From sequence record NC_015719.1: a DNA stretch of 40,940 bases; one strand, 5' to 3'. Below the pieces are notes generated by a model, which was not told the origin of the DNA, searched no databases, and was given only the letters and a program-made list of their open reading frames with translations. This document shows positions 1-40,940 of the stretch, piece after piece; position 1 is the first letter of the stretch; each line of letters begins with the position of its first letter. This stretch comes from Escherichia phage K30. A program made the translations under genes and the position numbers.

Positions 1-193
1 TCTCACAGTTTACACTTTTGGTTATCCCCCGGTACCCTCTAAGTTAGCCCAAAGTAACCATAGGCCACCCTAAACCTTCGGTTTAACCTTAGGTTGGACT
101 GTTGGGAACCTTGGGTGATACTATATGTAGTGGTTAGTGTGACCTTGGGATACTATATGTTGATCTCTCTGTATCCCTATCTGTTGGTACTCT

Positions 194-224
194 CTAAGTA
201 TCCACTAAGTATCCACTAAGTAAC
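194..224. repeat. Tandem 11-bp repeat CTAAGTATCCA (about 2.7 copies)
   Basis: Read directly: ctaagtatcca ctaagtatcca ctaagtaac; position is analogous to the short repeats next to the T7 left terminal repeat. Confidence 0.7.
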
Positions 225-334
225 AACCTGAGGTTAGACCTGAGGACATCCATCGACACTATACCTAAGGTTAACTATGCGTCTAACGTTTAGTTACTAT
301 AAGGCTATTGGTGACCATTGTCCATACACCAATC

Positions 335-357
335 AATTAGGTCACACTATAGGGAGA
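335..357 (+). promoter_or_regulatory. Phage RNAP promoter (phiOL-like), aattaggtcacactatagggaga
   Basis: Matches the 23-bp consensus shared by the other 12 promoters; +1 G at about 352. Confidence 0.8.
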
Positions 358-459
358 CACTTAAAGTATTACTAAGAGACCTTTACCATAAAACTACTAT
401 CACTATAGGTCTAACTATAAGACTAACTATAGGTCTAACTAAAAGTTTAACTTTAGGTG

Positions 460-488
460 TTGACATTCAGCTTACGCTATGAGACATT
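460..488 (+). promoter_or_regulatory. Candidate host sigma70 early promoter (T7 A1-like)
   Basis: TTGACA at 460-465, 17-bp spacer, weak -10 GACATT; aligns with the T7 A1 region from memory. Confidence 0.35.
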
Positions 489-593
489 AGCAACCGTTGA
501 GAGACACAACGTCACCAACAACCAGACAATACCGCGAGTTATCTGGTTAGACTGAAGGTCTCAAGTAGTCATCAACCGGACATACGAAAGTGG

Positions 594-622
594 TTGACTC
601 AACGATGAACAAGTAGTAAGAT
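594..622 (+). promoter_or_regulatory. Candidate host sigma70 early promoter (T7 A2/A3-like)
   Basis: TTGACT at 594-599, 17-bp spacer, -10 TAAGAT at 617-622; resembles T7 A3. Confidence 0.45.
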
Positions 623-723
623 GTACCACAGATTCACAGCAACGAAGTACCGCTACCTAGTAGCATCGCTCTTTAACAATATAGTTTGTGTCTTGATAGG
701 CTTACTCACAAAGGTGAACTATT

Positions 724-888
724 ATGACTAACGCACAACGTAAACGCTATGAAGCATTACAAGAGAAACTTGCTGTTGCTTATGCCGCTTGGCAAGCTAA
801 CACAGACAAGAGCAAACACGATAAACTTTACAGTAAAGTGGTTGCAATTAATGCTAAAATAGATAAACTTGTGAATAGTACCTTATAA
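724..888 (+). CDS. Hypothetical small early protein (54 aa, MTNAQRKRYEALQEKL...)
   Basis: ORF below the track threshold; ATG preceded by aaaggtga; lies downstream of the host-type promoters and is flanked by inverted repeats. Confidence 0.35.
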   Translation: MTNAQRKRYEALQEKLAVAYAAWQANTDKSKHDKLYSKVVAINAKIDKLVNSTL

Positions 889-1109
889 GATAGTTGCTGG
901 CACTAGCCGGCCTATCAAGGCACAAACCAAGCTCTTTAACAATTTGGATTAGTCGCTGATATGTATACCACCGCAATAGTGTTTAACTAGTGGTCACATT
1001 CAGGTCTCTGGCAAGGTACGCCCTGCCACCCTGATGGTTAGGCATTGCGCCTAATGAGAGTGACCATAATGATAACCACTAACTATCAATTAACTGAAGG
1101 ATATACACC

Positions 1110-1460
1110 ATGGAACGTAATGCTAACGCTTACTATGAACTTTTGGCAGCCACTGTTGAAGCATTCAACGAGCACATTCAGTACGATAAACTCACCGAGG
1201 ATGATGACTGGTATGATGCACTGCACGAGGTGGTAGACAGTCATGTTCCGCACTATTACCACGAGATTTTCACGGTGATGGCTGCCGATGGTATTGATCA
1301 CGAGTTCGATGACTCAGATCTCATTCCTGACACCAAGGATGTAAGCCGAATCTGTCAAGCACGCATCTATGAGGCACTCTATAATGACATATTGAACGAC
1401 TCTAGAGTCATCTGGTGTGAGCAGGGTGAAGATGATGAAGAGGACGACTATAATGATTAA
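1110..1460 (+). CDS. ocr: Ocr-like DNA-mimic anti-restriction protein (T7 gene 0.3)
   Basis: 116 aa, very acidic; recalled similarity to T7 Ocr (VPHYY..IF.VMA..GID.EF.DS.L.PDTKDV.RI.QARIYE); first gene after the early promoters. Confidence 0.85.
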   Translation: MERNANAYYELLAATVEAFNEHIQYDKLTEDDDWYDALHEVVDSHVPHYYHEIFTVMAADGIDHEFDDSDLIPDTKDVSRICQARIYEALYNDILNDSRVIWCEQGEDDEEDDYND

Positions 1461-2027: not shown

Positions 2028-2052
2028 CTAACTAACACAAGGAAACAACCTA

Positions 2053-3057: not shown

Positions 3058-3070
3058 CGAGGTGTATCTT

Positions 3071-3094
3071 AGGTGCCTCCACCGCGAGGCACCT
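3071..3094 (+). promoter_or_regulatory. Perfect 9-bp stem-loop upstream of gene 1 (possible R1-type processing site)
   Basis: aggtgcctc / caccgc / gaggcacct read directly; no T-run follows, so not a classic intrinsic terminator. Confidence 0.35.
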
Positions 3095-3144: not shown

Positions 3145-5865
3145 ATGAACGCATTAAACATTGCACGTAATGACTTCTCAGAGATTGAACTGGCCGCTAT
3201 TCCGTACAACATCCTCAGTGAGCACTACGGGGACAGACTGGCACGTGAGCAGTTAGCACTGGAGCACGAAGCGTACGAGCTGGGCGAACAGCGTTTCCTG
3301 AAGATGTTAGAACGTCAGGTTAAAGCTGGTGAGTTCGCCGACAACGTGGCCGCTAAGCCGCTGGTCTTAACGCTGCACCCACAGCTAACCAAACGCATCG
3401 ACGATTGGAAGGAGGAGCAAGCAAACGCTCGCGGCAAGAAGCCTCGCGCATACTACCCGATTAAGCACGGCGTTGCCTCAGAGTTAGCCCTTAGCATGGG
3501 AGCTGAGGTACTCAATGAGAAGCGTGGAGTGTCCAGTGAGGCTATCGCACTGCTGACCATTAAGGTCGTCTTAGGGACGCTCACAGACGCCTCTAAAGCC
3601 ACCATCCAGCAAGTATCCTCGCAGTTAGGCAAGGCGCTTGAGGATGAGGCCCGCTTCGGTCGTATCCGTGAGCAGGAGGCTTCCTACTTCAAGAAGAACG
3701 TAGCGGACCAGCTGGACAAGCGTGTGGGTCACGTGTACAAGAAGGCTTTCATGCAGGTCGTCGAGGCCGATATGATTTCCAAGGGGATGCTAGGCGGTGA
3801 CAACTGGTCCAGCTGGAAGACCGACGAGCAGATGCACGTTGGGACCAAGCTACTGGAACTACTCATTGAGGGCACTGGTCTGGTGGAAATGACCAAGAAC
3901 AAGATGGCCGATGGCTCTGACGATGTGACCAGCATGCAAATGGTCCAGCTGGCTCCAGCCTTCGTGGAACTACTGAGTAAACGAGCGGGAGCACTCGCAG
4001 GAATCAGCCCAATGTACCAACCGTGCGTAGTCCCTCCGAAACCTTGGGTTGAAACCGTGGGAGGTGGCTACTGGTCTGTAGGTCGTCGTCCGCTGGCACT
4101 GGTGCGTACCCACTCCAAGAAGGCACTGCGTCGCTACGAAGACGTTCACATGCCAGAGGTATACAAAGCGGTCAACCTCGCGCAGAACACACCGTGGAAG
4201 GTAAACAAGAAGGTACTGGCGGTAGTCAATGAGATTATCAACTGGAAGCACTGCCCGGTGGGTGACGTCCCAGCGATTGAACGCGAAGAGCTACCACCAC
4301 GCCCGGACGATATCGACACCAACGAGGTGGCACGTAAGGCTTGGCGCAAGGAGGCCGCAGCGGTTTACCGTAAGGACAAGGCCCGCCAGTCTCGCCGCTT
4401 GTCGATGGAGTTCATGGTCGCACAGGCCAACAAGTTCGCTAACCACAAGGCCATCTGGTTCCCGTACAACATGGACTGGCGTGGTCGTGTGTACGCTGTG
4501 AGCATGTTTAACCCACAGGGTAATGATATGACCAAGGGTATGCTGACATTGGCCAAAGGTAAGCCAATCGGTCTCGATGGGTTCTACTGGCTGAAGATTC
4601 ATGGTGCAAACTGTGCAGGCGTCGATAAGGTTCCTTTCCCTGAGCGCATCAAGTTCATCGAAGAGAACGAGGCCAACATTCTAGCGAGTGCAGCCGACCC
4701 GCTGAATAACACTTGGTGGACCCAGCAAGATTCACCGTTCTGTTTCTTAGCGTTCTGCTTTGAGTATGCAGGGGTAAAACATCACGGCCTGAATTATAAC
4801 TGTTCGCTGCCACTGGCGTTCGATGGGTCCTGCTCTGGGATTCAGCACTTCAGCGCAATGCTCCGCGATTCTATCGGTGGTCGTGCTGTTAACCTGCTGC
4901 CTTCTGATACCGTGCAGGATATCTACAAGATTGTTGCCGACAAGGTTAATGAGGTACTCCACCAGCACGTTATCAACGGGTCTCAGACGGTGGTCGAGCA
5001 GATTGCTGATAAGGAGACTGGTGAGTTCCGCGAGAAGGTAATGTTGGGCGAGTCTGTACTAGCTGCTCAATGGTTACAATACGGGGTGACCCGCAAGGTG
5101 ACCAAGCGTTCTGTCATGACGTTGGCGTATGGTTCCAAAGAGTTTGGCTTCCGCCAGCAAGTTCTGGAAGATACCATTCAGCCCGCTATCGACAATGGTG
5201 AGGGCCTGATGTTTACGCACCCTAACCAAGCGGCTGGCTACATGGCTAAGCTGATTTGGGACGCTGTGACCGTGACCGTAGTAGCCGCTGTCGAGGCGAT
5301 GAACTGGCTGAAGTCTGCTGCTAAACTGCTTGCCGCTGAAGTCAAGGATAAGAAGACCAAGGAGGTACTTCGTAAGCGTTGCGCAATCCACTGGGTAACA
5401 CCAGATGGCTTCCCAGTGTGGCAAGAGTACCGCAAGCAGAATCAAGCGCGCCTGAAGCTGGTCTTCCTAGGTCAAGCCAACGTTAAGATGACGTACAACA
5501 CCGGGAAGGACTCAGAGATTGACGCTCACAAGCAGGAATCTGGTATCGCTCCTAACTTTGTACACTCGCAAGACGGTAGTCACCTTCGCATGACCGTAGT
5601 ACATGCCAACGAGGTCTACGGGATTGACTCCTTCGCACTCATCCATGACTCCTTCGGGACCATTCCGGCAGACGCTGGGAATCTCTTTAAGGCAGTCCGT
5701 GAGACGATGGTAAAGACCTACGAGGACAACGATGTAATCGCTGACTTCTACAACCAGTTCGCTGACCAGCTGCACGAGTCTCAGCTTGACAAGATGCCAG
5801 CGGTACCAGCCAAAGGTGACCTTAATCTGCGTGATATCTTAGAGTCTGACTTTGCGTTTGCGTAA
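3145..5865 (+). CDS. 1: Single-subunit DNA-directed RNA polymerase (T7 gene 1)
   Basis: 906 aa; colinear recalled similarity to T7 RNAP across the whole length; C-terminal ...ILESDFAFA. Confidence 0.98.
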   Translation: MNALNIARNDFSEIELAAIPYNILSEHYGDRLAREQLALEHEAYELGEQRFLKMLERQVKAGEFADNVAAKPLVLTLHPQLTKRIDDWKEEQANARGKKPRAYYPIKHGVASELALSMGAEVLNEKRGVSSEAIALLTIKVVLGTLTDASKATIQQVSSQLGKALEDEARFGRIREQEASYFKKNVADQLDKRVGHVYKKAFMQVVEADMISKGMLGGDNWSSWKTDEQMHVGTKLLELLIEGTGLVEMTKNKMADGSDDVTSMQMVQLAPAFVELLSKRAGALAGISPMYQPCVVPPKPWVETVGGGYWSVGRRPLALVRTHSKKALRRYEDVHMPEVYKAVNLAQNTPWKVNKKVLAVVNEIINWKHCPVGDVPAIEREELPPRPDDIDTNEVARKAWRKEAAAVYRKDKARQSRRLSMEFMVAQANKFANHKAIWFPYNMDWRGRVYAVSMFNPQGNDMTKGMLTLAKGKPIGLDGFYWLKIHGANCAGVDKVPFPERIKFIEENEANILASAADPLNNTWWTQQDSPFCFLAFCFEYAGVKHHGLNYNCSLPLAFDGSCSGIQHFSAMLRDSIGGRAVNLLPSDTVQDIYKIVADKVNEVLHQHVINGSQTVVEQIADKETGEFREKVMLGESVLAAQWLQYGVTRKVTKRSVMTLAYGSKEFGFRQQVLEDTIQPAIDNGEGLMFTHPNQAAGYMAKLIWDAVTVTVVAAVEAMNWLKSAAKLLAAEVKDKKTKEVLRKRCAIHWVTPDGFPVWQEYRKQNQARLKLVFLGQANVKMTYNTGKDSEIDAHKQESGIAPNFVHSQDGSHLRMTVVHANEVYGIDSFALIHDSFGTIPADAGNLFKAVRETMVKTYEDNDVIADFYNQFADQLHESQLDKMPAVPAKGDLNLRDILESDFAFA

Positions 5866-5875
5866 GGTCTCAGGC

Positions 5876-5898
5876 AATTAGGGCACACTATAGGGAAC
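5876..5898 (+). promoter_or_regulatory. Phage RNAP promoter (phi1.1A-like), aattagggcacactatagggaac
   Basis: Consensus match; followed by AT-rich repeats of acttaaag. Confidence 0.85.
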
Positions 5899-5963
5899 CT
5901 TCGAACGACCGAGGTTTCCATTACTTAAAGTCTTAACTTAAAGAATACTTAAAGAGGCACACC

Positions 5964-6524
5964 ATGACTTACTCAATCGTTGTAACCATCTTGTTAATCA
6001 TCACCACAACGCTCTTCATTGTGAGTCTTCGCAATGCAATACGCAACGAAGAACTATTGGGGCGTTTGATTCAAGAAGCAAACTCCCAGCTTAGTGATGC
6101 GTCGACCAAGGTTCTTCGACTGACGGACAAGGCTAACTTCCTTGGTAAACAGGTGCGTTACTTAGAGAGTGAACTTGAGGAAGAAAAGCAGAAGGTGCTA
6201 GATGTGTACGAACTACGGAAGCGACAGCGGGACCGCATGAAGTTCCTGAGCAAGTCTCTTAAGGAAGCCCAAGATGAGCTGATGATGGTCTCTGACCTGA
6301 TTCACGTTAAGTTCACCGCTGTGTTACCTGATGGCACTCGCTCTAAGACTCTCTTTAAGTTAGGACTTGGACCTTGTGGTCTACACGTTAAGTCCCTTCG
6401 CTGGACTGAGCTAGACGACCGCTATCTGATAGACCAGCTGTGCACCAACGGCGAGCGCAAGCAGTTCACTTACTTTAAGAGCGAAGTAGTAGGGCGTATC
6501 GAGTTCCGCCACGGTAAGGTTTAA
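5964..6524 (+). CDS. Hypothetical membrane-anchored coiled-coil protein (gene 1.05 position)
   Basis: 186 aa; N-terminal hydrophobic helix, heptad-like charged stretch, about 80-aa C-terminal domain; AAAGAGG RBS; sits between two phage promoters. Confidence 0.6.
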   Translation: MTYSIVVTILLIITTTLFIVSLRNAIRNEELLGRLIQEANSQLSDASTKVLRLTDKANFLGKQVRYLESELEEEKQKVLDVYELRKRQRDRMKFLSKSLKEAQDELMMVSDLIHVKFTAVLPDGTRSKTLFKLGLGPCGLHVKSLRWTELDDRYLIDQLCTNGERKQFTYFKSEVVGRIEFRHGKV

Positions 6525-6545
6525 TTAGGGCACACTATCAGGAAC
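6523..6545 (+). promoter_or_regulatory. Variant phage promoter (phi1.1B-like), aattagggcacactatCAggaac
   Basis: Upstream half matches the consensus exactly; the initiation region is TATCAGG instead of TATAGGG. Confidence 0.55.
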
Positions 6546-6547
6546 AT

Positions 6548-6578
6548 ACTCAAGGTCATCGTTCGGTGGCCTTTATGA
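6548..6578 (+). promoter_or_regulatory. RNase III-type processing hairpin (R1.1-like)
   Basis: actcaaggtcatc-gttc-ggtggcctttatga: 9-bp stem with G:U pairs; same conserved flanks as T7 R1.1 (recalled). Confidence 0.6.
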
Positions 6579-6609
6579 ATGTCCCTAACAACCACTCAGG
6601 AGTAACACC

Positions 6610-6789: not shown

Positions 6790-7056
6790 ATGGCTGAGCA
6801 AACTAAATGGCTGTTCGATGGTAGCACTTCACAGTGGTCACGATTGGGCGCTACCGAACGAAGACTGACGGATGAGACGGGACTACATGTAATCATGACG
6901 TATATCCATTTCAACCGCACAGTTTTACTCTCCGTGTATGAACCAAGACCAGATTATGACGAGGTACTCATAGAGAAATCCTTCAGTCGCTGGTCGATTG
7001 ACTCAGCGTCAGACTGGCTGGCAAAACTCACAGCCGACTACTCAAGTTGGAAGTAA
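6790..7056 (+). CDS. 1.2: Gene 1.2-like protein (candidate host dGTPase inhibitor)
   Basis: 88 aa; position between 1.1 and ligase; weak recalled similarity at the C-terminus (..DW..K..WK). Confidence 0.55.
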   Translation: MAEQTKWLFDGSTSQWSRLGATERRLTDETGLHVIMTYIHFNRTVLLSVYEPRPDYDEVLIEKSFSRWSIDSASDWLAKLTADYSSWK

Positions 7057-7077
7057 TTAGGACACACTATAGGCAGA
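7055..7077 (+). promoter_or_regulatory. Phage RNAP promoter (phi1.3-like), aattaggacacactataggcaga
   Basis: Consensus match; overlaps the gene 1.2 stop. Confidence 0.8.
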
Positions 7078-7110
7078 CTCAAGGTCATCGGATTCCGGTG
7101 GCCTTTATGA
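7077..7110 (+). promoter_or_regulatory. RNase III-type processing hairpin (R1.3-like)
   Basis: actcaaggtcatcgg-att-ccggtggcctttatga; about 11-bp stem. Confidence 0.6.
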
Positions 7111-7156
7111 TTGCTTATTGCACACTAAATAAATACTACACTTCGGAGACATCATC

Positions 7157-8209
7157 ATGATGAACATTACGACTAATCCATATAAAGCCGTTTCATACGT
7201 ACGCTCTGCTATCGAGAAGGCGCTGGAGACTTCCGGTTACCTCATCGCGGACACTAAGCACGATGGTGTACGCGGGAACATTTGCGTAGACAACACGGCC
7301 AACGCAGCGTGGCTAAGCCGGGTCTCAAAGACCATTCCGGCCCTTGAGCACCTCAACGGTTTCGACCAGCGCTGGCAGCAGTTACTGAAAGATGACCGCT
7401 GGATTTTCCCGGATGGCTTCATGCTTGATGGTGAACTCATGGTCAAAGGTGTGGACTTCAACACTGGGTCTGGCCTGCTGCGTACCAAGTGGCTAAAGGC
7501 TACCAACTACGGGTTCGACTTCGGAGGTGTTCCACCACTGAAGGGTAGCAAGGTAGATTTCTGCCTCGACCCTAAGCAACTAAAAGTTGTTCTGTACGAT
7601 ATCATTCCGCTTGACATTATCGAATCCGGTGATGACTACAACGTGATGACCCTCCTCCGCCTTGAGCACGTCAAGGTAGCCTTACCAGTCCTGCAAGACC
7701 ACTTCCCTGAAGTTGAGTGGTGCCTCTCTGAGTCCCATGAAGTTTACGACATGGACGAACTCGATGCGCTGTACCGACAGAAACGAGGAGAAGGTCATGA
7801 AGGTCTGGTGGTTAAGGACCCTCAGGGTATATATAAGCGCGGTAAGAAGTCCGGCTGGTGGAAACTGAAGCCAGAGAATGAGGCTGACGGTGTAGTAGTT
7901 GGTCTCGTGTGGGGCACTCCCGGTAAGGCCAACGAGGGTAAAGTGATTGGCTTCGAGGTTCTCCTTGAGAGTGGTAGAGTGGTTAACGCTACGAACATCT
8001 CACAGGAACTTATGGATGAGTTCACCTCTCGCGTCAAGGAATACACTACCGAGTGTAATGCTAATGAAGCTGGCTGCTGGTATATGAACCCTTACGAGGG
8101 CTGGGCGTGCCAAATCAAGTACATGGAGGAGACTCCAGACGGTTCTCTGCGTCACCCATCGTTCGATAAATGGCGTGGTAGCGAGGCTGACCCAACCATC
8201 AAGATGTAA
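7157..8209 (+). CDS. 1.3: ATP-dependent DNA ligase (T7 gene 1.3)
   Basis: 350 aa; recalled strong similarity to T7 ligase including the adenylation motif region (IKYDGVRG in T7, TKHDGVRG here) and C-terminal ETPDGSLRHPSF. Confidence 0.95.
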   Translation: MMNITTNPYKAVSYVRSAIEKALETSGYLIADTKHDGVRGNICVDNTANAAWLSRVSKTIPALEHLNGFDQRWQQLLKDDRWIFPDGFMLDGELMVKGVDFNTGSGLLRTKWLKATNYGFDFGGVPPLKGSKVDFCLDPKQLKVVLYDIIPLDIIESGDDYNVMTLLRLEHVKVALPVLQDHFPEVEWCLSESHEVYDMDELDALYRQKRGEGHEGLVVKDPQGIYKRGKKSGWWKLKPENEADGVVVGLVWGTPGKANEGKVIGFEVLLESGRVVNATNISQELMDEFTSRVKEYTTECNANEAGCWYMNPYEGWACQIKYMEETPDGSLRHPSFDKWRGSEADPTIKM

Positions 8210-8230
8210 TTAGGACCCACTATAGGAGAC
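8208..8230 (+). promoter_or_regulatory. Phage RNAP promoter, aattaggacccactataggagac
   Basis: Consensus match; overlaps the ligase stop. Confidence 0.8.
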
Positions 8231-9122: not shown

Positions 9123-9237
9123 CGCATCGTATGAACTCCCGGTACACGCTGGGTCTCTTGAGGAGGCCCTCGAAGTTGCCGAGGCAGAGTACGAAGAGTT
9201 AGGCCAAGTGACTCGGGTACGCCCTGATAGTCATTAG
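9088..9237 (+). CDS. 2: Host RNA polymerase inhibitor (T7 gene 2)
   Basis: 49 aa from an internal ATG with AAGGAG RBS; LEEALEVAE...VTRVRP resembles T7 Gp2 (recalled). Confidence 0.7.
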   Translation: MQKFVVTVETANASYELPVHAGSLEEALEVAEAEYEELGQVTRVRPDSH

Positions 9238-9254
9238 GGCACACTATAGGGACA
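9232..9254 (+). promoter_or_regulatory. Phage RNAP promoter (phi2.5-like), cattagggcacactatagggaca
   Basis: Consensus match. Confidence 0.8.
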
Positions 9255-9296
9255 CAGGCTGTCCCTCTTTCTGTTATAAACCAAAGGAGATTCATC

Positions 9297-10900: not shown

Positions 10901-10923
10901 CATTAGGGCACACTACAGGGAGA
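10901..10923 (+). promoter_or_regulatory. Variant phage promoter (phi4-like), cattagggcacactaCagggaga
   Basis: Consensus match except TACAGGG instead of TATAGGG. Confidence 0.6.
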
Positions 10924-10962
10924 CAATTACGTTTCCCTGTTGTCGCTTGAGGAGATTACTTT

Positions 10963-12897
<1,935 letters not shown>

Positions 12898-17697: not shown

Positions 17698-17746
17698 AAA
17701 CTCATGGGCACAATTAGGACCCACTATAGGGAAGTGCCCATTATGA
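17698..17746 (+). promoter_or_regulatory. RNase III-type hairpin enclosing a phage promoter (R6.5/phi6.5-like)
   Basis: 8-bp stem atgggcac (17704-17711) / gtgcccat (17734-17741) brackets the promoter core; flanks aaactca...ttatga are those of the hairpin family. Confidence 0.55.
17712..17734 (+). promoter_or_regulatory. Phage RNAP promoter (phi6.5-like), aattaggacccactatagggaag
   Basis: Consensus match. Confidence 0.8.
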
Positions 17747-20132: not shown

Positions 20133-20153
20133 TTAGGGCACACTATAGGGAGA
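20131..20153 (+). promoter_or_regulatory. Phage RNAP promoter (phi9-like), aattagggcacactatagggaga, with 5' leader hairpin
   Basis: Consensus match; transcript begins gggagacc-gctt-ggtttccc (8-bp stem). Confidence 0.85.
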
Positions 20154-20195
20154 CCGCTTGGTTTCCCTCTTAGTCTTAACTTTAAGGAGATTGAA

Positions 20196-21152: not shown

Positions 21153-21173
21153 TTAGGGCCCACTATAGGGAGA
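21151..21173 (+). promoter_or_regulatory. Phage RNAP promoter (phi10-like), aattagggcccactatagggaga
   Basis: Consensus match; about 165 nt upstream of the gene 10 ATG. Confidence 0.85.
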
Positions 21174-21332
21174 CACATCCGGTTCTACTGTAATGTAGAG
21201 TTTGTGCTCCCTTCGAGTTACACAATGAGTATCACCTCGTTTCAAGTAGTACCTCAACAGCTTGGCAACGATAGGCCCGTTTGGTCAGCGTAGTGACTAA
21301 TTCTATACTTAAACAACATAAGGAGATTCAAC

Positions 21333-22504: not shown

Positions 22505-22513
22505 TAAGCCAAA

Positions 22514-22551
22514 CCCCTTGGGGACCACTCACGGTCTCTGAGGGGTTTTTT
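22514..22551 (+). terminator. T-phi-like terminator for phage RNAP
   Basis: ccccttggggacc-actcac-ggtctctgagggg followed by tttttt; resembles T7 T-phi (AACCCCTTGGGG...GAGGGGTTTTTTG) from memory. Confidence 0.8.
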
Positions 22552-25570: not shown

Positions 25571-25593
25571 AATTAGGGCACACTATAGGGAGA
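25571..25593 (+). promoter_or_regulatory. Phage RNAP promoter (phi13-like), aattagggcacactatagggaga
   Basis: Exact consensus match. Confidence 0.85.
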
Positions 25594-31800: not shown

Positions 31801-32858
31801 TCATTGGCACCATCAAGTTTGGTACTCAGGAGCTGTCAGCCCGTTCTCCTTGGACCAAGATGCTTAATGGTACGGCTAACTACATTCTGGACACTGCCCG
31901 TCAGGGTGTGCTAGGTGATGTGGCTGGTGCTGCCCTCGGTGGCAAGGGTTCCAAGTTTGGCAAAGAGAACTTCCTTAAAGCTGCCTCTATTAGTCCTGAG
32001 CAGTGGAAGGGAATCAAGCAGCTTTTTGTCGACCATGCGACTCGTGATGCTAACGGTCAGTTCTCCATCAAGGACAAGAAGGCTTTCAGTCAGGACCCGA
32101 GGGCGATGGACCTGTGGCGTCTTGCTGATAAGGTTGCCGATGAAACCATGCTGAGACCACACAAGGTATCCCAGCAGGATTCCAAGGCATACGGTGCTGG
32201 TGTTAAGATGGCTATGCAGTTCAAGAACTTCACCATCAAATCACTAAACGCCAAGTTCATTCGGTCCTTCTATGAGGGTTACAAGAACAACCGTGCTATC
32301 GACATGGCGTTGACCCACGTGTTGTCTCTTGGTATCGCCGGGACTTACTTTGCGATGCAGGCCCACGTGAAGGCTTACGGTCTCCAAGAGTCTCAGCGTA
32401 AGGACTACCTGAAGAAAGCCTTGAACCCGACCATGCTGGGATACGCAGCGTTGACTCGAAGTTCCCACACTGGTGCCCCGCTGTCCATCGTCTCGATGAT
32501 TGCTGGTGCCGCTGGGTTCCAAGACGCCAACATGCTGCGTTCCACCATCTTACCGAAGGAGGAACAGTTCCAGAAGAAAGACGGAGCGTCCAAAGGTCGC
32601 GCTGAGTCGAGCAATCTTGCGGGTAACTTGGGGTCTCAGGTTCCAGCGCTAGGTTACGTAGGGAACGTTATTGCGACCGCTAAGAACGCCTACGGTGTTG
32701 CTACAGCTCCCAACAAGCCGACCGAGCGTGACTACATGACTGGCCTGATGAACTCCACCAAAGAGCTTGTGCCTAATGACCCACTGACCCAACAGCTCAT
32801 CATGAAAATTTATGAGGCTAACGGGGTCACCATCAAGCAGCAGCCGAAGCCTAACTAA
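28893..32858 (+). CDS. 16: Internal virion protein D with N-terminal lytic transglycosylase domain (T7 gene 16)
   Basis: 1321 aa; N-terminus carries a soluble-lytic-transglycosylase-like block (GPKGIMQFTRNTARAMG...ALAYNQGEG); synteny. Confidence 0.95.
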   Translation: MSYDKSKPSDYDGIFQKAADSHGVSYDLLRKLSFNESSFKPKAVSKTGPKGIMQFTRNTARAMGLNVTDSDDDGRYNPELAIDAGAKLLASLVKKYNGDELKAALAYNQGEGPAGAPQLQAYDNGDFGSISEEGRNYMRKLLDVAKSPRSGALEEFGGITPKGKGIPAEDAFKGISNAGKVGTELPESHGFDVEGVAQEAPNTPYAKDFWEKTGTTIEEYNSRSTFFGFSDAASAELQNSTLGIAFRAARADDGYDVFKDTMTPTRWNSYAPSKEDLQKLRDSGLPPSYYGVVTGGDGENWDSLIKLAKDNFEADQRAAEAGTGAKLAAGIVGAGVDPLSYVPLVGVAGKGLKVVNKALRVGAQAGALNVASEGIRTSIAGGEAHYADAALGGLLFGAGMSALSDAVAAGIRKARGVDSVNEFAGPALRMEARETAINTGGHDTSTLPPENFSFEQSHRGVPFADHPTEEGAVVLANGSILSDTNPLNPRTQRDFAEIDPERAAPGIKLGGFTEIGLKTLGSKDAGVRAIAQDLVRSPTGMQSGSSGKFGATASDIHERLHATDQRMYNQLYDAVDRAMKDPEFSVGEQKMSRRAIRQEVYKRAALAIERPELQADLTKGEREVMDLLKEHFDTKRELMEQPGIFGNADAVSVFPGSRHKGTYVPNVYDRGAKELMTQKLGGPEGLQQAIAQSWLTSYRVRPEVKARVDEYLMELNGYKSVDQVTPEVVQKHAMDKAYGISHTEDFTASSVIDDNITGLVGIENNSFLEARNMFDSDIPVTLPDGSTFSVNDLRDFDMSRIIPAYDRRVNGDISIMGGSGKTTKQLKDEIMALDKRAERKGQLKGEVEALKDTVKILTGRARRNNDTAFETAMRSLNDLAFFAKNFYMGPQNLTEIAGMLAKGNVKAMLHGIPTLRDLATRTSPVSGSELRELHGALFGKELDQLIRPGREDIVQRIREASDTSGAMSSVIGTIKFGTQELSARSPWTKMLNGTANYILDTARQGVLGDVAGAALGGKGSKFGKENFLKAASISPEQWKGIKQLFVDHATRDANGQFSIKDKKAFSQDPRAMDLWRLADKVADETMLRPHKVSQQDSKAYGAGVKMAMQFKNFTIKSLNAKFIRSFYEGYKNNRAIDMALTHVLSLGIAGTYFAMQAHVKAYGLQESQRKDYLKKALNPTMLGYAALTRSSHTGAPLSIVSMIAGAAGFQDANMLRSTILPKEEQFQKKDGASKGRAESSNLAGNLGSQVPALGYVGNVIATAKNAYGVATAPNKPTERDYMTGLMNSTKELVPNDPLTQQLIMKIYEANGVTIKQQPKPN

Positions 32859-32879
32859 TTAGGACACACTATAGGGAGA
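32857..32879 (+). promoter_or_regulatory. Phage RNAP promoter (phi17-like), aattaggacacactatagggaga, with 5' leader hairpin
   Basis: Consensus match; transcript begins gggagacc-gatt-ggtttccc. Confidence 0.85.
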
Positions 32880-32919
32880 CCGATTGGTTTCCCTCCTCAT
32901 TCAACTAAAGGAGGTCACA

Positions 32920-35631
32920 ATGGACCAAGACATTAAAACAGTCATTCAGTACCCAGTAGGGGCCACTGAGTTCGACATCCCGTTCGACTACCTGTCCCGC
33001 AAGTTTGTCCGTGTGTCGCTGGTGACAGGCGACAACCGAAGACTGCTGAGTAACATCACTGAGTACCGCTACGTGTCTAAGACCAGAGTGAAGCTCCTTG
33101 TGGAGACCGCTGGGTTCGACCGTGTGGAAATCCGTAGGTTCACCTCGGCATCTGAGCGAATCGTTGACTTCAGTGATGGCTCGGTTCTCCGTGCGGCTGA
33201 CCTTAACGTGTCTCAGATACAGTCGGCACATATCGCAGAGGAAGCACGTGATGCGGCACTTATGGCAATGCCTCAGGATGATGTCGGTAACCTTGATGCA
33301 CGTAACCGTAGAATCGTGCGGCTGGCACCGGGCATTGATAGTACAGATGCAATCAATAAGAACCAACTGGACACCACCTTAGGTGAGGCTGGTGGTATTC
33401 TGTCACAAGTCAAGGATACCCAGAAGGACATTCAGAACTACATTCAGAAGTTCGGCGATGACACCGCTATGGTTCGTGGAGTAAATTGGGTGTATAACGG
33501 TGGGTCTGCCATTGGTGGAGAGACCTCCTTTATCATCGACAAGTCAGCGCCAGTGTTCGCCGTACCATACATTGAGGTAAACGGAAGCCGTCAGTTCCGA
33601 GACTGGCAGTACGAGTATGACCCTGCAACCAAGCGTGTCACTCTGGTTAAACCTCTGGAGGCTGGAGACTTTGTTGTATGCCTCACTACCGAGAATAAGT
33701 TACCTTTAGAAGACCTGCTGGCTAGTACAGGAGGTGCCGATTCCATTGGTAAGGCTGGAGGTGGTACAGTTCAGGATGGTCTGGATGCAACGATACATGG
33801 TACTGATGTCCACCGAGACACTGTGACTCCCGGTAAACTGGACACACTCCTTGTGTACAATGGGACCAACGCTGGGCGCGACCTACGTGGCCATGAGTTC
33901 GTAATGCCCCACGGCACATTCTCCGCGACTCGCATCTTGAGAACTCGTGGTATCTCAGCGGCTGAATCTAAGTACACTGGGTTCACTTGGCGCGGACAGG
34001 GTAGTTCGTTCACCAAGTTGGTCCACCCTGCGACTGGTGGTCAGGGTGATATTGCATTCATGGACTACCTGAAGGATGTTACGATGTCTGGGTTCATGAT
34101 GGACAACACCGCGCTAGGTCAGGGGACTTCCAATCAGGATACCCGTAACGGTCAGTTCTGGATTCGACATTCGGTTGACTCCTACTTCGACGACCTGCGC
34201 TTCGCTGGTGCTGACGCCCTTACGTTCTGTCTGGACCACTGTAAGAACATCTACTCGACAAACCTCAAGGTAGACTATCAGCTGCGCTATCCGACTGGTA
34301 CAGGTAAGTCCCCGCTAATAGTTGGTGACTACTCGGAGCAGTGCATGTTCATCGGCGGCTACGTTAAGACCGTGTCACCTGACGGAACCATAAAGTATGC
34401 TGGTGACCTCGCAGATAACGACCAAGCGGATGATACCAAATGGGCGTTCATTAACCTGTACGGATTGACGTTTGAACAGAAGCCTAACTCTAACGCCTGT
34501 ATGTGGCAAGAAGGGGAGGGTGCACCATCCAACGCTCACTTCATCGGTATGAACTACATCAACAACGGTGTAGGTCATGGTGTGTCTGAGAAAGCTGTGG
34601 GTACTGACATCGGGTCTACCTTCCGTCAGGCTCAGGTTCGTGCTGTGTGGAACCGTGCTGAGTACATCTCAATCGGCAGTCACTTCATTAACAACGATGC
34701 CAAGTATCCTGCTGGCACTGGTGGCGCAGGTACTGCGGCTGCTGGTGGTGTTCATAATGACAACGCCAAGTTCACCTCTCTGGTTGGTGACTACTTCCGT
34801 GGTAACTTCGCGGATTATACAGACTACACAGGGGCATCTGGTGTTAACCCGGAGAACTCAACCCACATCACCAACGCAAAGTTGACATCCATCATTCGTA
34901 CATCGTCCTCCAGTACCTCTCAGCATTTAGCCATTGTGAACTGCCAGTTAACTTCTGCGGGTCGTATTAGCGGCGGCGGTAACGGGAGACTCCACGTGTC
35001 CGTTGTGGCATCTCACTGCGTCGGGCCTCTGGGGCAGTTTGGTCACGGACAGTCCGAGACGTACCTTGACGTCATAAACTCTACGTTCACTGCCGCTGGT
35101 AGCACTGAGGCTATGATTACCCAGTCAGGTGTTGGTAATATCTCGTTCGCTAACTCCACGTTCCGTGATTATATCCGTGTGGTAGATGGCTCGCATACCC
35201 GTGTTACCTTCCGTAACTGTACGTTCTACACTTGTACTTTCACTGAGGACGACCGAAAAGCTCGCTACGTTAACTGCCGATTTATCTCGTGCACTGACGC
35301 TCCAGACTCCTTCGGCCTCAACTTTGCGGCAGACTCTCTGGACCGCCCTAGCTCACTTCGAGTTAACGTAACGTTAACTGCTGGCGGCAGCTATACGTTC
35401 CCGGCTTGGGTACTTCAGGGTCGTGGTGCTTACTTCATCAACGTGGGTGGTAATGGTGCCAACCTTCCTGCCTGCGCTGGTATCATTGGTAAGAGTAGCG
35501 CGACTGGTAGTGGTGTATGGACCCCTCAGTGGGAAAGCACTCCTAGTAGTATTGTTGTATCTTGGCCATCCAACGGATACATTACTGTTACGGCCACAAC
35601 TGCTGGCAACTACACAATCGGCGTCCACTAA
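32920..35631 (+). CDS. 17: Tail fibre / tailspike with T7 gp17-like N-terminal anchor and beta-helix (depolymerase-like) C-terminal region
   Basis: N-terminal 150 aa resemble T7 gp17 ([48 protein letters not shown]); C-terminus has repetitive N.TF / NCTFYTCTF segments typical of parallel beta-helix enzymes; start at ATG 32920 with AAGGAGGT RBS. Confidence 0.9.
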
Positions 35632-35644
35632 TAAGGAGAACCAC

Positions 35645-37198
35645 ATGTTAGACAAATTGAATCAGCCGAAAGGCTCAACCATTGGTGTGCTCAAGGATGG
35701 GCGCACCACCCAAGAGGCCATTGACGAACTCACTAATGATGTAACAGGAAGTATCACAACTACCCGGTATGCATCGAGTGCTTCCCAGGCGCTGTTCCCG
35801 AAGCTCATTGACAAGATGACTGCGTATCGGCATGGTGTCTCTGGATTCCAAGACAAGTTTCGAATCTACGGGTATGGCTCCTCTGTAGGCAATGGGGCAA
35901 CGATTGGTGGAAACTCCTCGCCAAATACCCCAGTAGCAAAATTCTTTGAGCACTTCCAGAGGACGGTCAACAAGGCTGGAATCTACCCATTCGAATACTC
36001 GAACAAGTCGGTGGATGGTTCCAACATCAACGATTTCCTCAACCGGGAGTGGCCTGCGACTGTCGCCACTGGTGTCTTCCCGGACCTAGCGGTTTTCGCT
36101 TACGGTATGAATGACTTCCCCTCGGCGCAGTATAATGCTGGGATGACCTTCGGGGCCAACGGTTTCAAACAGAGACTTCGCAATGCAATACAGAAGGTTC
36201 GAGACGCTGGCGGAGATGTAGTTCTCCTGACCACCCCACACCCAAACATTGAGGAATACTCGTGGGAACTCCCGTCAAGTATAGACATGGTGTGGCCCCA
36301 GTTTGCTGCCAAACCCGTGGCTGGTGACGTTCTTATTCCACCAGTGTCACAATCAAATGTGTCCTTCGACTTCATGGGCAAACGCATCACTCAGGGTGTT
36401 CGCTTCCTGAGAGGTAACGATGCGATGCGTGAGGTTGCTGTGGAGATGGGTTGCGTCTTGATTGACGTTGAGAAATACTGGTTCGAGGCCGTTGGTAAGT
36501 ATGGGAACGTACTACTGTTCGACCGCGTGCCAGCAATGCAGACAGTGCACCCTAACCTACTGGGTCACCAGCAGTCGTACTGGCGGGCAATCGAAGAGTT
36601 CTTCAACAATGTGGATTCCTCTGGATGGATTGCTCCAGACGCTAAGTTGAACCAGACGCTGGATGTTGGCGGTAACGCCCTGAACCCCGCGAAGATGGAA
36701 GCTGATGTCGACCTTCAGGCCAACGGCATCCGTCAGCGTGCATTCGTGCGCCGGGATAAGTCTGGCCGTGTCATGGAGGAGCTGACGCAGGACAGCAGGG
36801 TCAAGCGCACATCCTACACGGTGTCAGACCCTACAGTATCAGCTCCGGGATATAGCCTAACATGGGACGAGTGGTTTACCCGCACCAAGGGATTATTCAC
36901 CAGTGGGGAGACTTTGGGCATCCCTGTAAATAACCGCACCGAAGGTCGACTATTAGTCACAGCGTGGATTTCAGGCCAGACTGGCTGGACCCAGCTTGAG
37001 GACTACTTAGTCTCTAACCGTGAGGGTGTTGTATTGGTCTCCAAGATTGGCTCTTTAGATAATACTCCACCGGCTGGTGGTACAGGGACCAACGGTCAGC
37101 GCCTGTTCACCGTGTCCACCTCTGCGAACAATGTCGTGGTTAATATCCTATCGGATAACGCCACTGTGAAGTTCAAACTGGACACCTTTGGGGCATAA
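35645..37198 (+). CDS. Second receptor-binding protein candidate with SGNH/GDSL-hydrolase-like motifs (putative esterase tailspike)
   Basis: 517 aa from ATG 35645 with TAAGGAGAA RBS; motifs YGYGSS, YGMNDF, VHPNLLGH in the order expected for an SGNH fold; sits between gene 17 and the holin. Confidence 0.6.
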   Translation: MLDKLNQPKGSTIGVLKDGRTTQEAIDELTNDVTGSITTTRYASSASQALFPKLIDKMTAYRHGVSGFQDKFRIYGYGSSVGNGATIGGNSSPNTPVAKFFEHFQRTVNKAGIYPFEYSNKSVDGSNINDFLNREWPATVATGVFPDLAVFAYGMNDFPSAQYNAGMTFGANGFKQRLRNAIQKVRDAGGDVVLLTTPHPNIEEYSWELPSSIDMVWPQFAAKPVAGDVLIPPVSQSNVSFDFMGKRITQGVRFLRGNDAMREVAVEMGCVLIDVEKYWFEAVGKYGNVLLFDRVPAMQTVHPNLLGHQQSYWRAIEEFFNNVDSSGWIAPDAKLNQTLDVGGNALNPAKMEADVDLQANGIRQRAFVRRDKSGRVMEELTQDSRVKRTSYTVSDPTVSAPGYSLTWDEWFTRTKGLFTSGETLGIPVNNRTEGRLLVTAWISGQTGWTQLEDYLVSNREGVVLVSKIGSLDNTPPAGGTGTNGQRLFTVSTSANNVVVNILSDNATVKFKLDTFGA

Positions 37199-37414: not shown

Positions 37415-37672
37415 ATGGACCTGATTAAGTTCCTCGAAATGTTAGACACTGAGATGGCTCAGCAGATGCTCATGGACCTGAAGAATCCAGAGAAGCGGAC
37501 CCCTCAGTTGTACAACGCCATTGGTAAACTACTGGAGCGTCACAAGTTCCAAATCTCTAAGCTAACCCCTGACGTTAACATCTTGGGTGGACTGGCTGAG
37601 GGTCTGGAGGCTTACAACTCCAAGGTGGGTGCTGATGGTCTTACAGACGACGATACGTTCACCCTACAGTGA
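37415..37672 (+). CDS. 18: Terminase small subunit (T7 gene 18)
   Basis: 85 aa; recalled similarity to T7 gp18 (FLEMLDT.MAQ.ML.DL, PQLYNAI.KLL.RHKFQI.KL.PDV.ILGGLA, GLTDDD..TLQ). Confidence 0.9.
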   Translation: MDLIKFLEMLDTEMAQQMLMDLKNPEKRTPQLYNAIGKLLERHKFQISKLTPDVNILGGLAEGLEAYNSKVGADGLTDDDTFTLQ

Positions 37673-37675
37673 TAT

Positions 37676-37709
37676 ACTCAAGGTACTACTATATGTAGTG
37701 CCTTTATGA
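37676..37709 (+). promoter_or_regulatory. RNase III-type processing hairpin (R18.5-like)
   Basis: actcaaggtactac-tatat-gtagtgcctttatga; about 10-bp stem. Confidence 0.6.
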
Positions 37710-37768
37710 ATGTCATTGCACTACGCTAGGCGTTCCTACGTGAAATCTGAGAAACAACGGGAGGCATT

Positions 37769-38215
37769 ATGCTGGGGTTCACAAAGAGAATCGTCCCGTA
37801 TCTTGTGGCTATCATGGTGTTTGCCTTCGGGTGGCACTTGGGTTCGCAATCTACGGACGCTAAATGGAAGGAGGTAGTACAGAATGAGTACGTTTCGAAG
37901 CAAACAGCTAGAGTTCAAACTCAAGCAGCACTTGATGAGATATCGGCTAAGTACCAAGCAGACCTTGAGGGGCTGGAGGGCAGCACTGATAGGATTATTG
38001 CTGATTTGCGTAGCGACAATAAGCGGCTGCGCGTTAGAGTCAAACCTACCAGTGTCGCCGCAGGACCAGACGGTCGATGCCTCGTTGATGGTTCCGTCGA
38101 ACTACACGAAGCAACTGCTCGAAGTCTTATCGCAATAACCCAGAAGGCCGACCTCAAAGAGAAGGCCCTACAGGACACTATTCGTAAGCTACAGCGGAAA
38201 GGAGGTGAACATTGA
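37769..38215 (+). CDS. 18.5: Rz-like i-spanin (T7 gene 18.5)
   Basis: 148 aa; N-terminal TM segment; recalled similarity to T7 gp18.5 ([43 protein letters not shown]). Confidence 0.9.
37884..38138 (+). CDS. 18.7: Rz1-like o-spanin lipoprotein, embedded in gene 18.5 (T7 gene 18.7)
   Basis: 84 aa in the +1 frame inside 18.5; lipobox ...[11 protein letters not shown]; recalled similarity to T7 gp18.7. Confidence 0.8.
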   Translation: MSTFRSKQLEFKLKQHLMRYRLSTKQTLRGWRAALIGLLLICVATISGCALESNLPVSPQDQTVDASLMVPSNYTKQLLEVLSQ

Positions 38216-39969
38216 GTAACTCTCAGCAAGCCAAGAACGCCTTAATCATTGCACAACTGAAGGGTGACTTTGTCGCCTTTCTCTTCGTGCTCTGGAAGGC
38301 CCTGAATCTGCCGGAACCAACCAAGTGTCAAATCGACATGGCTAAATGTCTGGCAGACCCAAAGAACAAGAAGTTTATCCTTCAGGCTTTCCGTGGTATC
38401 GGGAAGTCGTTCATCACGTGTGCGTTCGTTGTGTGGACCCTGTGGCGTGACCCTCAGTTAAAGATACTGATTGTCTCAGCCTCAAAGGAACGTGCGGACG
38501 CTAACTCCATCTTCATTAAGAACATCATCGACTTGTTGCCTTTCCTGAGTGAGCTTAAACCTCGCCCCGGTCAGCGTGACTCCGTGATTAGTTTTGATGT
38601 AGGCCCTGCCAAGCCAGACCACAGCCCGTCAGTTAAGTCTGTAGGTATTACGGGTCAGCTTACTGGTAGCCGTGCCGATATCATCATTGCAGATGACGTG
38701 GAGATTCCCGGTAACTCTGCAACTCAAGGTTCTCGTGAGAAACTCTGGACGTTGGTTCAGGAGTTCGCCGCGCTGTTGAAACCTCTACCGACTAGCCGTG
38801 TTATCTATCTGGGTACCCCTCAGACCGAGATGACGCTCTACAAGGAACTTGAGGACAACCGTGGTTACTCTACAATTATCTGGCCAGCACAGTATCCTCG
38901 CTCCAAAGAGGAAGACCTGTACTATGGCGACCGACTGGCTCCTATGCTCCGTAGCGAGTACGATGAGGACAAAGAGGGTCTCGCCAGTCAGCCAACAGAC
39001 CCGGTGCGGTTCGACTCTATGGACCTTCAGGAGCGTGAGGTGGAGTACGGCAAGGCTGGCTATACGCTTCAGTTCATGCTCAACCCAAACCTCAGTGACG
39101 CCGAGAAGTACCCTCTACGCCTCCGTGACGCTATCGTGTGCAGTCTACAGGTAGACAAGGCCCCAATGCACTACCAGTGGTTACCTAACCGTCAGAACCG
39201 CAATGAGGAGCTTCCTAACGTGGGTATGAAGGGTGACGAGATTTACTCCTTCCATACGGCCTCAAGTAACACTGGTGCGTATCAAGGTAAGATTCTGGTC
39301 ATTGACCCAAGCGGTCGTGGTAAGGATGAGACTGGCTGGTGCGTATTGTATACCCTCAACGGTTACATCTACTTGATGGACGCTGGTGGTACTCGTGGTT
39401 ACGAGGAGAAGTCCCTTGAGTTCCTCGCCAAGAAGGCCAAACAGTGGCAGGTTCAGACTGTGGTCTTCGAGAGTAACTTCGGTGACGGTATGTTCGGTAA
39501 TGTGTTCCAGCCTGTTCTCCTGAAGCATCACCCAGCGCAACTCGAAGAGATTCGTGCTCGTGGTATGAAAGAGGTCCGCATCTGCGATACCCTTGAGCCT
39601 GTACTGGCAAGTCACCGCTTGGTCATCCGTGATGAGGTAATCCGACAGGACTACCAGACGGCACGTGATGCAGACGGTAAGCACGCTCTGAAGTACAGCC
39701 TGTTCTACCAGATGACCCGTATGAGCCGTGAGAAGGGAGCTGTGGCACATGATGACCGACTTGATGCATTAGCATTGGGTGTTGAGTTCCTACGCTCTAC
39801 GATGCAGCAGGACGCTGTGAAGATAGAGGCTGAGGTACTTCAGGAGTTCTTGGAGCACCACATGGAGAAACCTCTGAGTAATATCTCACAGTTCAGAACC
39901 ACCAGCAGTAACGGTGTGGACATCCGGTGGGAAGACGATGGGGATGACTCTATGTTCATCGCATGGTAA
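38212..39969 (+). CDS. 19: Terminase large subunit (T7 gene 19)
   Basis: 585 aa; recalled extensive identity to T7 gp19 ([70 protein letters not shown]); TTG start with AAAGGAGGTGA RBS. Confidence 0.97.
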
Positions 39970-40049
39970 CTATGCAGGGATTGTGCATAAGGATTCATTG
40001 GGCCACGGAAGGCTGCTTTGGGGAAACTCCATGTATAACAGACACTTGG

Positions 40050-40072
40050 AATTAGGACCCACTATAGGGAGA
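40050..40072 (+). promoter_or_regulatory. Phage RNAP promoter (phiOR-like), aattaggacccactatagggaga
   Basis: Consensus match, downstream of gene 19 as in T7. Confidence 0.85.
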
Positions 40073-40213
40073 GACCACTCAAAGATTACTATAAGACAAC
40101 TTAAAGATTCATTCATATAGTTATTCACTTTAAGTCTCCTTACAGATAGAGGGTAGTGATGATAATATCACCCTCTCACTCTAAGACACTAAGAGCCAAC
40201 ATAAGGAGGACCT

Positions 40214-40363
40214 ATGCGCTTATTGTTAACCTTACTGCGCCATAGGACTACTTGGCGATTTCTGCTGGTACTTGCTGGTGCCCTTGGGGCTTCACTGGTT
40301 ACTCAGCAGCAACTCGGTGGACTGGAGACTCTCGTGTGCTCTCTACTCACTTGTAGCGATTAG
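40214..40363 (+). CDS. 19.5: Gene 19.5-like small hydrophobic protein (49 aa)
   Basis: TAAGGAGGA RBS; MRLLLTLLRH...LVLAGALGASLV is hydrophobic; positioned after phiOR like T7 gene 19.5. Confidence 0.45.
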   Translation: MRLLLTLLRHRTTWRFLLVLAGALGASLVTQQQLGGLETLVCSLLTCSD

Positions 40364-40540
40364 GGTCTTCCTGACGCGCTAGGGATTCCGTAGTGATGCT
40401 TATCAGCATACACCACTCCATCCCTCTATAGTCAATACTTAAAGTTAACCTTAGGTGATTCACTGGGTCTACCTACGGGTCTATGCACTGACCTGAGGAT
40501 TACCTGAGGTTACCTTTAAGAATATTACATAAAGTTCTGA

Positions 40541-40940
40541 GTGTATATCTCACAGTTTACACTTTTGGTTATCCCCCGGTACCCTCTAAGTTAGCCCAAA
40601 GTAACCATAGGCCACCCTAAACCTTCGGTTTAACCTTAGGTTGGACTGTTGGGAACCTTGGGTGATACTATATGTAGTGGTTAGTGTGACCTTGGGATAC
40701 TATATGTTGATCTCTCTGTATCCCTATCTGTTGGTACTCTCTAAGTATCCACTAAGTATCCACTAAGTAACAACCTGAGGTTAGACCTGAGGACATCCAT
40801 CGACACTATACCTAAGGTTAACTATGCGTCTAACGTTTAGTTACTATAAGGCTATTGGTGACCATTGTCCATACACCAATCAATTAGGTCACACTATAGG
40901 GAGACACTTAAAGTATTACTAAGAGACCTTTACCATAAAA
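40541..40940. repeat. Right copy of 400-bp direct repeat (includes a second copy of the phiOL-like promoter at about 40875-40897)
   Basis: Identical to positions 1-400 by direct reading. Confidence 0.8.

Follow-up and report, generated by a model that had tools for sequence, protein, structure and literature searches.

The K11 polymerase/promoter pair has been a laboratory reagent for decades. In the reference record of K11 (RefSeq NC_011043) its promoters are annotated as 13 'promoter' features, running from phiOL to phiOR. Here, the corresponding system of Escherichia phage K30 (sequence record NC_015719.1) is described; the window analysed was the whole 40,940-nucleotide (nt) sequence, coordinates 1-40940, and the gene map was drawn from the list of open reading frames (ORFs) plus synteny with K11. 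Two further systems are relevant to the comparison. The RNA polymerase (RNAP) of Klebsiella phage vB_KpnP_IME321, named 'KpnP', transcribes in vitro from CAATTAGGGCACACTATAGGGAAC, and its minimal promoter was given as AATTAGGGCACACTATAGGGA, with G as +1 (PMC12272871). In the structure of T7 RNAP, base-specific contacts are made by R746, N748, R756 and Q758, and covariation connects residue 746 with promoter position -7, 748 with -11/-10, 756 with -10/-9, and 757/758 with -8 (PMC11880802). The same work describes a 748K/756N/758K ('KNK') variant of T7 RNAP whose cognate promoter has GGGCC at -12..-8, the pair showing more than 200-fold orthogonality to wild-type T7 (PMC11880802).

Thirteen copies of a 23-bp motif in the window are almost certainly the phage-specific promoters of a K11/KP32-like Przondovirus, that is, of a T7-group Klebsiella phage. 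The feature is already known, being the standard annotated transcription system of a well-known phage group, and it is real but ordinary because the motif set matches the promoters annotated in K11 one for one.

Thirteen K11-type promoters

The window was searched for AATTAGGRCMCACTATAGGGAGA with up to 3 mismatches, and the result was compared with 100 dinucleotide-preserving shuffles. Twelve matches were found, all on the plus strand, where 0 were expected. Eleven of these, each 0-2 mismatches from the pattern (335, 5876, 7055, 9232, 10901, 17712, 20131, 21151, 25571, 32857 and 40050), belong to a set of 13 sites listed in a preliminary description of this DNA, made from the sequence without database searches; the twelfth, at 40882, was absent from that list. 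The other two listed sites, 6523 and 8208, are present at these coordinates, but are degenerate around +1. A log-odds weight matrix was built from the 11 strong sites and scanned over both strands, with 50 shuffled sequences as control. Matrix scores of the 14 sites ranged from 23.5 to 40.7 bits, compared to a best shuffle score of 12.7 bits, and nothing else above 8 bits was found on either strand, including counterparts of T7 phi1.5, phi4c, phi4.3 and phi4.7. Window positions 1-393 recur exactly at 40548-40940 (a 393-bp terminal redundancy), and the site at 40882 is therefore a duplicate of the one at 335 rather than an independent promoter. Since the matrix scan found nothing else, the repertoire consists of exactly 13 unique sites, all on the plus strand and all where the preliminary description had placed them:

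335-357, plus strand: phiOL promoter, AATTAGGTCACACTATAGGGAGA, +1 G at 352; 1 mismatch relative to K11 phiOL (record position 479)
5876-5898, plus strand: phi1.05 promoter, +1 at 5893, 11 nt past the RNAP stop codon; 23/23 nt identical to K11 phi1.05
6523-6545, plus strand: phi1.1 promoter, AATTAGGGCACACTATCAGGAAC, C at -1 and A at +1, overlapping the TAA of gene 1.05; 25.3 bits; annotated as phi1.1 in K11
7055-7077, plus strand: phi1.3 promoter, GGCAGA start, upstream of the ligase gene; 23/23 nt identical to K11 phi1.3
8208-8230, plus strand: phi1.6 promoter, AATTAGGACCCACTATAGGAGAC, GGAGAC start (GG, not GGG), overlapping the ligase TAA; 23/23 nt identical to K11 phi1.6
9232-9254, plus strand: phi2.5 promoter, CATTAGG...GGGACA, overlapping the end of gene 2; 1 mismatch relative to K11 phi2.5
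10901-10923, plus strand: phi4 promoter (T7 phi3.8 position), after gene 3.5; 23/23 nt identical to the K11 promoter at record position 10908
17712-17734, plus strand: phi6.5 promoter; 23/23 nt identical to K11 phi6.5
20131-20153, plus strand: phi9 promoter, perfect consensus, overlapping the gene 8 stop codon; predicted transcript opening with a 5' hairpin
21151-21173, plus strand: phi10 promoter, GGGCC at -12..-8, upstream of the major capsid gene; 1 mismatch relative to K11 phi10
25571-25593, plus strand: phi13 promoter, perfect consensus
32857-32879, plus strand: phi17 promoter, overlapping the gene 16 stop codon, upstream of the tail-fibre gene
40050-40072, plus strand: phiOR promoter, 81 nt past the terminase gene; 23/23 nt identical to K11 phiOR
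40882-40904, plus strand: second phiOL copy, inside the terminal redundancy; not independent

Positions -16 to -11, -9, and -7 to -3 are invariant. GG-N-C-(A/C) occupies -12..-8 in 13/13 sites, in the variants GGGCA, GGACA, GGGCC, GGACC and GGTCA; the base counts are 7 G, 5 A and 1 T (the last in phiOL) at -10, and 9 A and 4 C at -8. The consensus written in the preliminary description was reproduced with a small correction, namely that -10 accommodates T (in phiOL) as well as G and A. The sequence AATTAGGGCACACTATAGGGAGA (-17..+6, with GG(G/A)C(A/C) at -12..-8), the published K11 consensus, agrees with these results, and 11 of the 13 sites lie within 2 mismatches of it. A 13-mer core on the minus strand, at 37659-37671 (CACTGTAGGGTGA, 2 mismatches), was discarded; this sole minus-strand match is at chance level (0.96 expected) and has no upstream motif half. 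No mention of the literal 23-mer was found in the searchable literature.

The 23-mers of the 13 K11 features were paired in order with the window sites. Positional orthology was observed for 13/13 promoters in the same order, with 9 identical over 23 nt and 4 differing by 1-2 nt (at -10 of phiOL, for example, the window has T and K11 has A), which bears out the earlier designation of the motif as K11-type. The same promoter set is present in KP32, K5-2, Adeo, VLCpiA3d and IME321, and the in vitro promoter of IME321, CAATTAGGGCACACTATAGGGAAC, corresponds to window positions 5875-5898, covering phi1.05. K11 and the window thus share promoter number (13), order and positions, the length and loops of the RNAP, and the Tphi terminator, whereas the two genomes are only about 79% similar overall.

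Cognate polymerase and predicted transcription map

The gene for the RNAP and the two segments of it that bear on promoter recognition are located as follows:

3145-5865, plus strand: gene 1, single-subunit RNA polymerase, 906 aa (Pfam RNA_pol plus RPOL_N)
3412-3459, plus strand: AT-rich recognition loop region, aa 90-105 (EEQANARGKKPRAYYP), identical to K11 and unlike T7 and T3
5416-5538, plus strand: specificity loop, aa 758-798, with R769/K771/N779/K781 at T7 R746/N748/R756/Q758

The gene 1 product is a T7-like single-subunit polymerase by its matches to RNA_pol (PF00940, E=1.9e-111) and RPOL_N (PF14700, E=2.6e-20), and PDB entry 1CEZ (a T7 RNAP structure) was matched over the full length, residues 1-906. 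It is 98.2% identical to K11 RNAP (X53238) and 75% identical to the T7 and T3 enzymes; the length of 906 aa, which the preliminary description had given for K11, is indeed common to both phages, and both recognition loops are identical. The extra length relative to T7 RNAP consists of insertions of 20 aa and 3 aa in the N-terminal domain. The specificity loop, with R/K/N/K at the positions equivalent to T7 746/748/756/758, is identical at 41/41 aa to that of K11, KP32, K5-2, Adeo, VLCpiA3d and IME321. The IME321 RNAP is 98.7% identical to the window enzyme and has the same loop, but derives from a different isolate and species. Likewise, the engineered KNK variant of T7 RNAP has the same triad as the window RNAP, and its cognate -12..-8 bases are those of the window phi10; it is, however, a T7 scaffold with three substitutions, whereas the window enzyme is a native K11-class polymerase.

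The transcription map predicted for the window comprises the 13 promoters, one Tphi terminator and two early host promoters, the last three being:

460-496, plus strand: putative early host (sigma-70) promoter, 33/37 nt identical to K11 record positions 581-617
594-630, plus strand: putative early host (sigma-70) promoter, 37/37 nt shared with K11 record positions 715-751; picked up by the sigma-70 scan as well
22511-22548, plus strand: Tphi-type terminator between genes 10 and 11, formed by a 16-bp hairpin and a TTTTTT run after it

The terminator is identical at 38/38 nt to the one annotated in K11, and is homologous to T7 Tphi. Both early promoters, too, are orthologues of sigma-70 promoters annotated in the K11 record. 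Generic sigma-70 and terminator scans performed at or below shuffle expectation, and were useful only for Tphi and one of the early promoters.

By analogy with its relatives, host RNA polymerase would transcribe the early region from the sigma-70 promoters at about 460 and 594, leading to synthesis of the gene 1 RNAP. This enzyme would bind the 23-bp sites, the AT-rich recognition loop contacting -17..-13 (AATTA) and the specificity loop reading -12..-7 in the major groove via R769, K771, N779 and K781. The conserved CACTATA segment would then melt, and transcription would start at the G located 17 nt into the motif. The middle genes are probably transcribed rightward from phi1.05-phi6.5, which are off-consensus like T7 class II promoters, while the late genes would be driven by phi9, phi10, phi13 and phi17, near-perfect to consensus like those of T7 class III, with partial termination expected at the Tphi hairpin. 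The map matters mainly for correct annotation, in that the window belongs to a Przondovirus of the K11/KP32 class, and it guides the choice of promoter for users of the phage or its polymerase in in vitro transcription.

Alternative readings and two promoter classes

Direct observations are the sites with their statistics, their orthology to promoters annotated in K11, and the identity of polymerase and recognition loops. The following counts against the assignment of all 13 motifs as active K11-type promoters. Actual starts at +1, the bases that the loops contact, and class II/III timing are features we infer from relatives, a start at the +1 G being shown for the IME321 enzyme only (98.7% identical), with a template promoter that equals phi1.05. 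The K11 reference set is that of the RefSeq annotation. Sites 6523 and 8208, finally, have deviations at -1/+1 or +3 and may show little or no activity. The last point leads to the alternative that survives best, although it is unlikely: only the 11 strong sites would be functional, and 6523 (phi1.1) and 8208 (phi1.6) would be decayed relics without initiation. The two sites score 25.3 and 23.5 bits, respectively, relative to at least 34 bits for all others, 6523 has C at -1 and A at +1, and 8208 is missing the third G. Against this, K11 has both annotated as promoters, and the two variants are conserved throughout the genus: the CAGGAAC variant of phi1.1 and the GGAGAC start of phi1.6 are kept nearly or exactly base for base in K11, KP32, K5-2, Adeo and IME321. 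T7 class II promoters deviate in a similar manner, with T7 phi1.6 starting GGAGACAC, as the window phi1.6 does, and T7 phi2.5 having T at -1 and A at +1. The recognition part, -17..-2, is intact in both 6523 and 8208.

The resemblance to T7 (NC_001604) is otherwise extensive. The 23-bp architecture (-17..+6) is shared, promoters are found at the same positions in the two genomes (OL, 1.1A/1.05, 1.1B/1.1, 1.3, 1.6, 2.5, 3.8/4, 6.5, 9, 10, 13, 17 and OR), early-middle promoters are off consensus and late ones consensus in both, and Tphi follows gene 10; T7 has 17 promoters, of which phi1.5, phi4c, phi4.3 and phi4.7 have no window counterpart. It could be argued that the motifs are ordinary T7-, T3- or SP6-class promoters and the K11 distinction unreal, as the -7..+6 core CACTATAGGGAGA is common to T7 and as few as 4 mismatches separate the T7 consensus from sites with A at -10, but this is very improbable. 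The window consensus differs from that of T7 at five positions (-17, -15, -12, -10 and -8), from that of T3 also at five (-12, -11, -10, -8 and -2), and from that of SP6 at seven, and each of the three is more than 2 mismatches away from every window site, in line with the distinction from T7 and T3 drawn in the preliminary description. Specifically, no site in the window came within 2 mismatches of the T7 motif TAATACGACTCACTATAGGGAGA (CGACT at -12..-8), nor within 4 mismatches of the T3 motif AATTAACCCTCACTAAAGGGAGA (ACCCT at -12..-8 and A at -2) or the SP6 motif ATTTAGGTGACACTATAGAAGAA. In addition, the window RNAP, 75% identical to T7 RNAP, has K/N/K where T7 has N748/R756/Q758 (NRQ) and T3 has D at 748, and the KNK/GGGCC pair was the one found more than 200-fold orthogonal to T7 in experiment (PMC11880802).

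A comparably minute probability attaches to the repeats being dispersed elements of another kind, for instance recombination hot spots, or signals for packaging or replication. Some T7 promoters (phiOL, phi1.1A/B and phiOR) do double as replication or packaging elements. Promoters are indicated instead: all sites are strictly plus-oriented and sit between genes ahead of each gene block, they are homologous to promoters used in experiments, and the polymerase matches. The weakest alternative, that the window belongs to the KpV289 promoter class (AATTAGGTAGCACTATAGGGAGA, KNF loop), has in its favour that KpV289 is closest by intergenomic similarity (85.8) among the genomes compared and that the window receptor-binding genes are KpV289-like, but can practically be dismissed, since TAG/TAT at -10..-8 occurs in 0/13 window sites, all of which read N-C-(A/C), and the window loop, rather than being of the HKRDQ...VFMTYN(R/K)GDTK type, is that of K11, 9 residues off the KpV289 loop, including K781 versus F.

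The KpV289 comparison nevertheless divides the genus in two, a mildly useful by-product of the analysis. When relatives were scanned with the window matrix, KpV289 was seen to have promoters at the same 13 positions, and its motif is the same outside -10..-8, where it has TAG (AATTAGGTAGCACTATAGGGAGA; TAT in phiOL). Its RNAP is 97% identical to that of the window; of the 26 residues at which the two differ, 9 fall close together in the segment equivalent to T7 740-767, among them K781F at the Q758 position. The same pairing of TAG promoters and loop was seen in IL33 and Oda, and loop type and promoter type co-segregated in 10/10 genomes compared. The co-segregation is a useful internal control because it makes 'K11-type' a real, testable category within the genus, and the window fits on both counts. 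At a cutoff of at least 95% identity, the phage collection contained 232 records with the KpV289 type of loop and 147 with the K11 type. A scan of IMG/VR with the TAG motif returned 82 stretches (664 kb) with 185 promoter-like sites, distributed as 174 TAG, 10 TAT, 1 TGG and 0 K11-type.

The most far-reaching reading, which we consider plausible, if somewhat short of an even chance, concerns two natural pairs in the genus that never mix, K/N/K with GG(G/A)C(A/C) and K/N/F with GGTAG, the window being a K11-class genome with KpV289-like receptor-binding genes. Should the pairs be functionally orthogonal, they would form a barrier of transcriptional incompatibility separating Klebsiella phages that co-infect or recombine, and synthetic biology would gain an orthogonal pair that already exists in nature. 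In the searchable literature, neither the TAG class nor its motif was found described, and coverage outside that literature is possible. A different, T3/K1F-like sequence, AATTAACCCACACTATTGGGAAC, precedes gene 4.3 in KP32 (12856-12878) and KpV289 (12873-12895), and is absent from the window; its -12..-8 bases, ACCCA, belong to another polymerase class, paired with D/R/A (PMC11880802).

Genome relationships and surroundings of the promoters

Both halves of the window matched hundreds of Klebsiella Przondovirus phages by megablast. The closest match was VLCpiA3d, with 94.8% identity across 94% of the first 25 kb, which led us to reject identity of the window to a deposited genome; for the right 16 kb, the best value was about 92% identity over 90% (August 2025 phage collection). 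No record in that collection reached 95% identity genome-wide. Expressed as aligned fraction x identity, the similarity was 78.6 to K11, 78.0 to KP32, 85.8 to KpV289 (the highest intergenomic similarity among the genomes compared) and 47.1 to T7, with values spanning 75-86 for K11, KP32, K5-2, KpV289, IL33 and IME321. In the practice of the International Committee on Taxonomy of Viruses (ICTV), the genus threshold is about 70% genome-wide nucleotide similarity. The similarities to these phages are over that threshold and gene order is syntenic; from the aligned fraction x identity values, the window is therefore of the same genus as K11, and of a species differing from every record compared. 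By nucleotide comparison, the window is thus assigned to Przondovirus as a T7-like Klebsiella phage of the K11/KP32 kind, and by the usual 95% criterion it would be a separate species within this genus. The preliminary description had suggested a K11-like phage, probably infecting Klebsiella, and had pointed to K11/KP32-group genomes for nucleotide comparison; the best matches did fall in Przondovirus, the genus of K11, and the top genome-wide matches were Klebsiella phages of that genus.

With the exception of phiOL, the promoters (12/13) start between 5 nt inside and 81 nt past the end of the preceding gene, and the next start codon is found 30-165 nt downstream. The earlier observation that the motifs always stand before genes holds, the sites being intergenic or overlapping only a stop codon. 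The stop codon of the preceding gene is overlapped by 7 promoters (6522-6524, 7054-7056, 8207-8209, 9235-9237, 20130-20132, 21150-21152 and 32856-32858). In 6 of these 7, the last two bases of TAA constitute the first two A's of the motif, while the overlap at phi2.5 differs, the TAG being located within CATTAGG. The promoters phi9, phi10, phi13, phi17 and phiOR start with the full GGGAGA, whereas the early-middle promoters deviate around the start site.

A 5'-terminal hairpin including or abutting +1 was predicted in 8 of the 13 transcripts (5893-5937, 6540-6584, 7072-7116, 9249-9293, 10918-10962, 20148-20192, 21168-21212 and 32874-32918), and these leaders resemble the stem-loop of the T7 phi10 leader. 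A CTCAAGGTCATCG...GGTGGCCTTTATGA hairpin is common to the leaders of phi1.1 and phi1.3, and its location is that of the RNase III sites R1.1 and R1.3 annotated in T3. The phi9 region matches that of phi17 at 95% identity across 40 nt.

The left terminus of the window, TCTCACAGTTTA, is common to K11, KP32, K5-2, KpV289 and Adeo. Direct terminal repeats annotated in relatives measure 177-182 bp (180 in K11, 177 in K5-2, 179 in KpV289, 182 in Adeo and 181 in Oda). The end of the K11 repeat plus its concatemer-junction sequence align to window position 177, and the right ends of the relatives to about 40725. The extra 216 bp in the 393-bp redundancy, which hold the phiOL copy at 40882, reflect either an over-extended record or a truly longer repeat.

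No tRNA genes were found in the window. In the early region, gene 0.3 is Ocr-like anti-restriction (phrog_2568), like T7 (window 724-888 and 1110-1460 cover gene 0.3 and an upstream ORF), unlike K11, KP32 and KpV289, in which the gene 0.3 product is annotated as an S-adenosylmethionine (SAM)-dependent methyltransferase. The ORF upstream of gene 0.3 encodes 54 aa (phrog_16783) and lies within a segment, 638-930, that has no K11 match. Towards the right end, two receptor-binding proteins of 903 aa (32920-35631) and 518 aa (35642-37198) gave full-length matches to PHROG tail-fibre families. Their genes are covered by KpV289 and KpV766, whereas K11 has no blastn match at 33529-37195, so that host-range genes resembling those of KpV289 are joined here to a transcription system of the K11 class.

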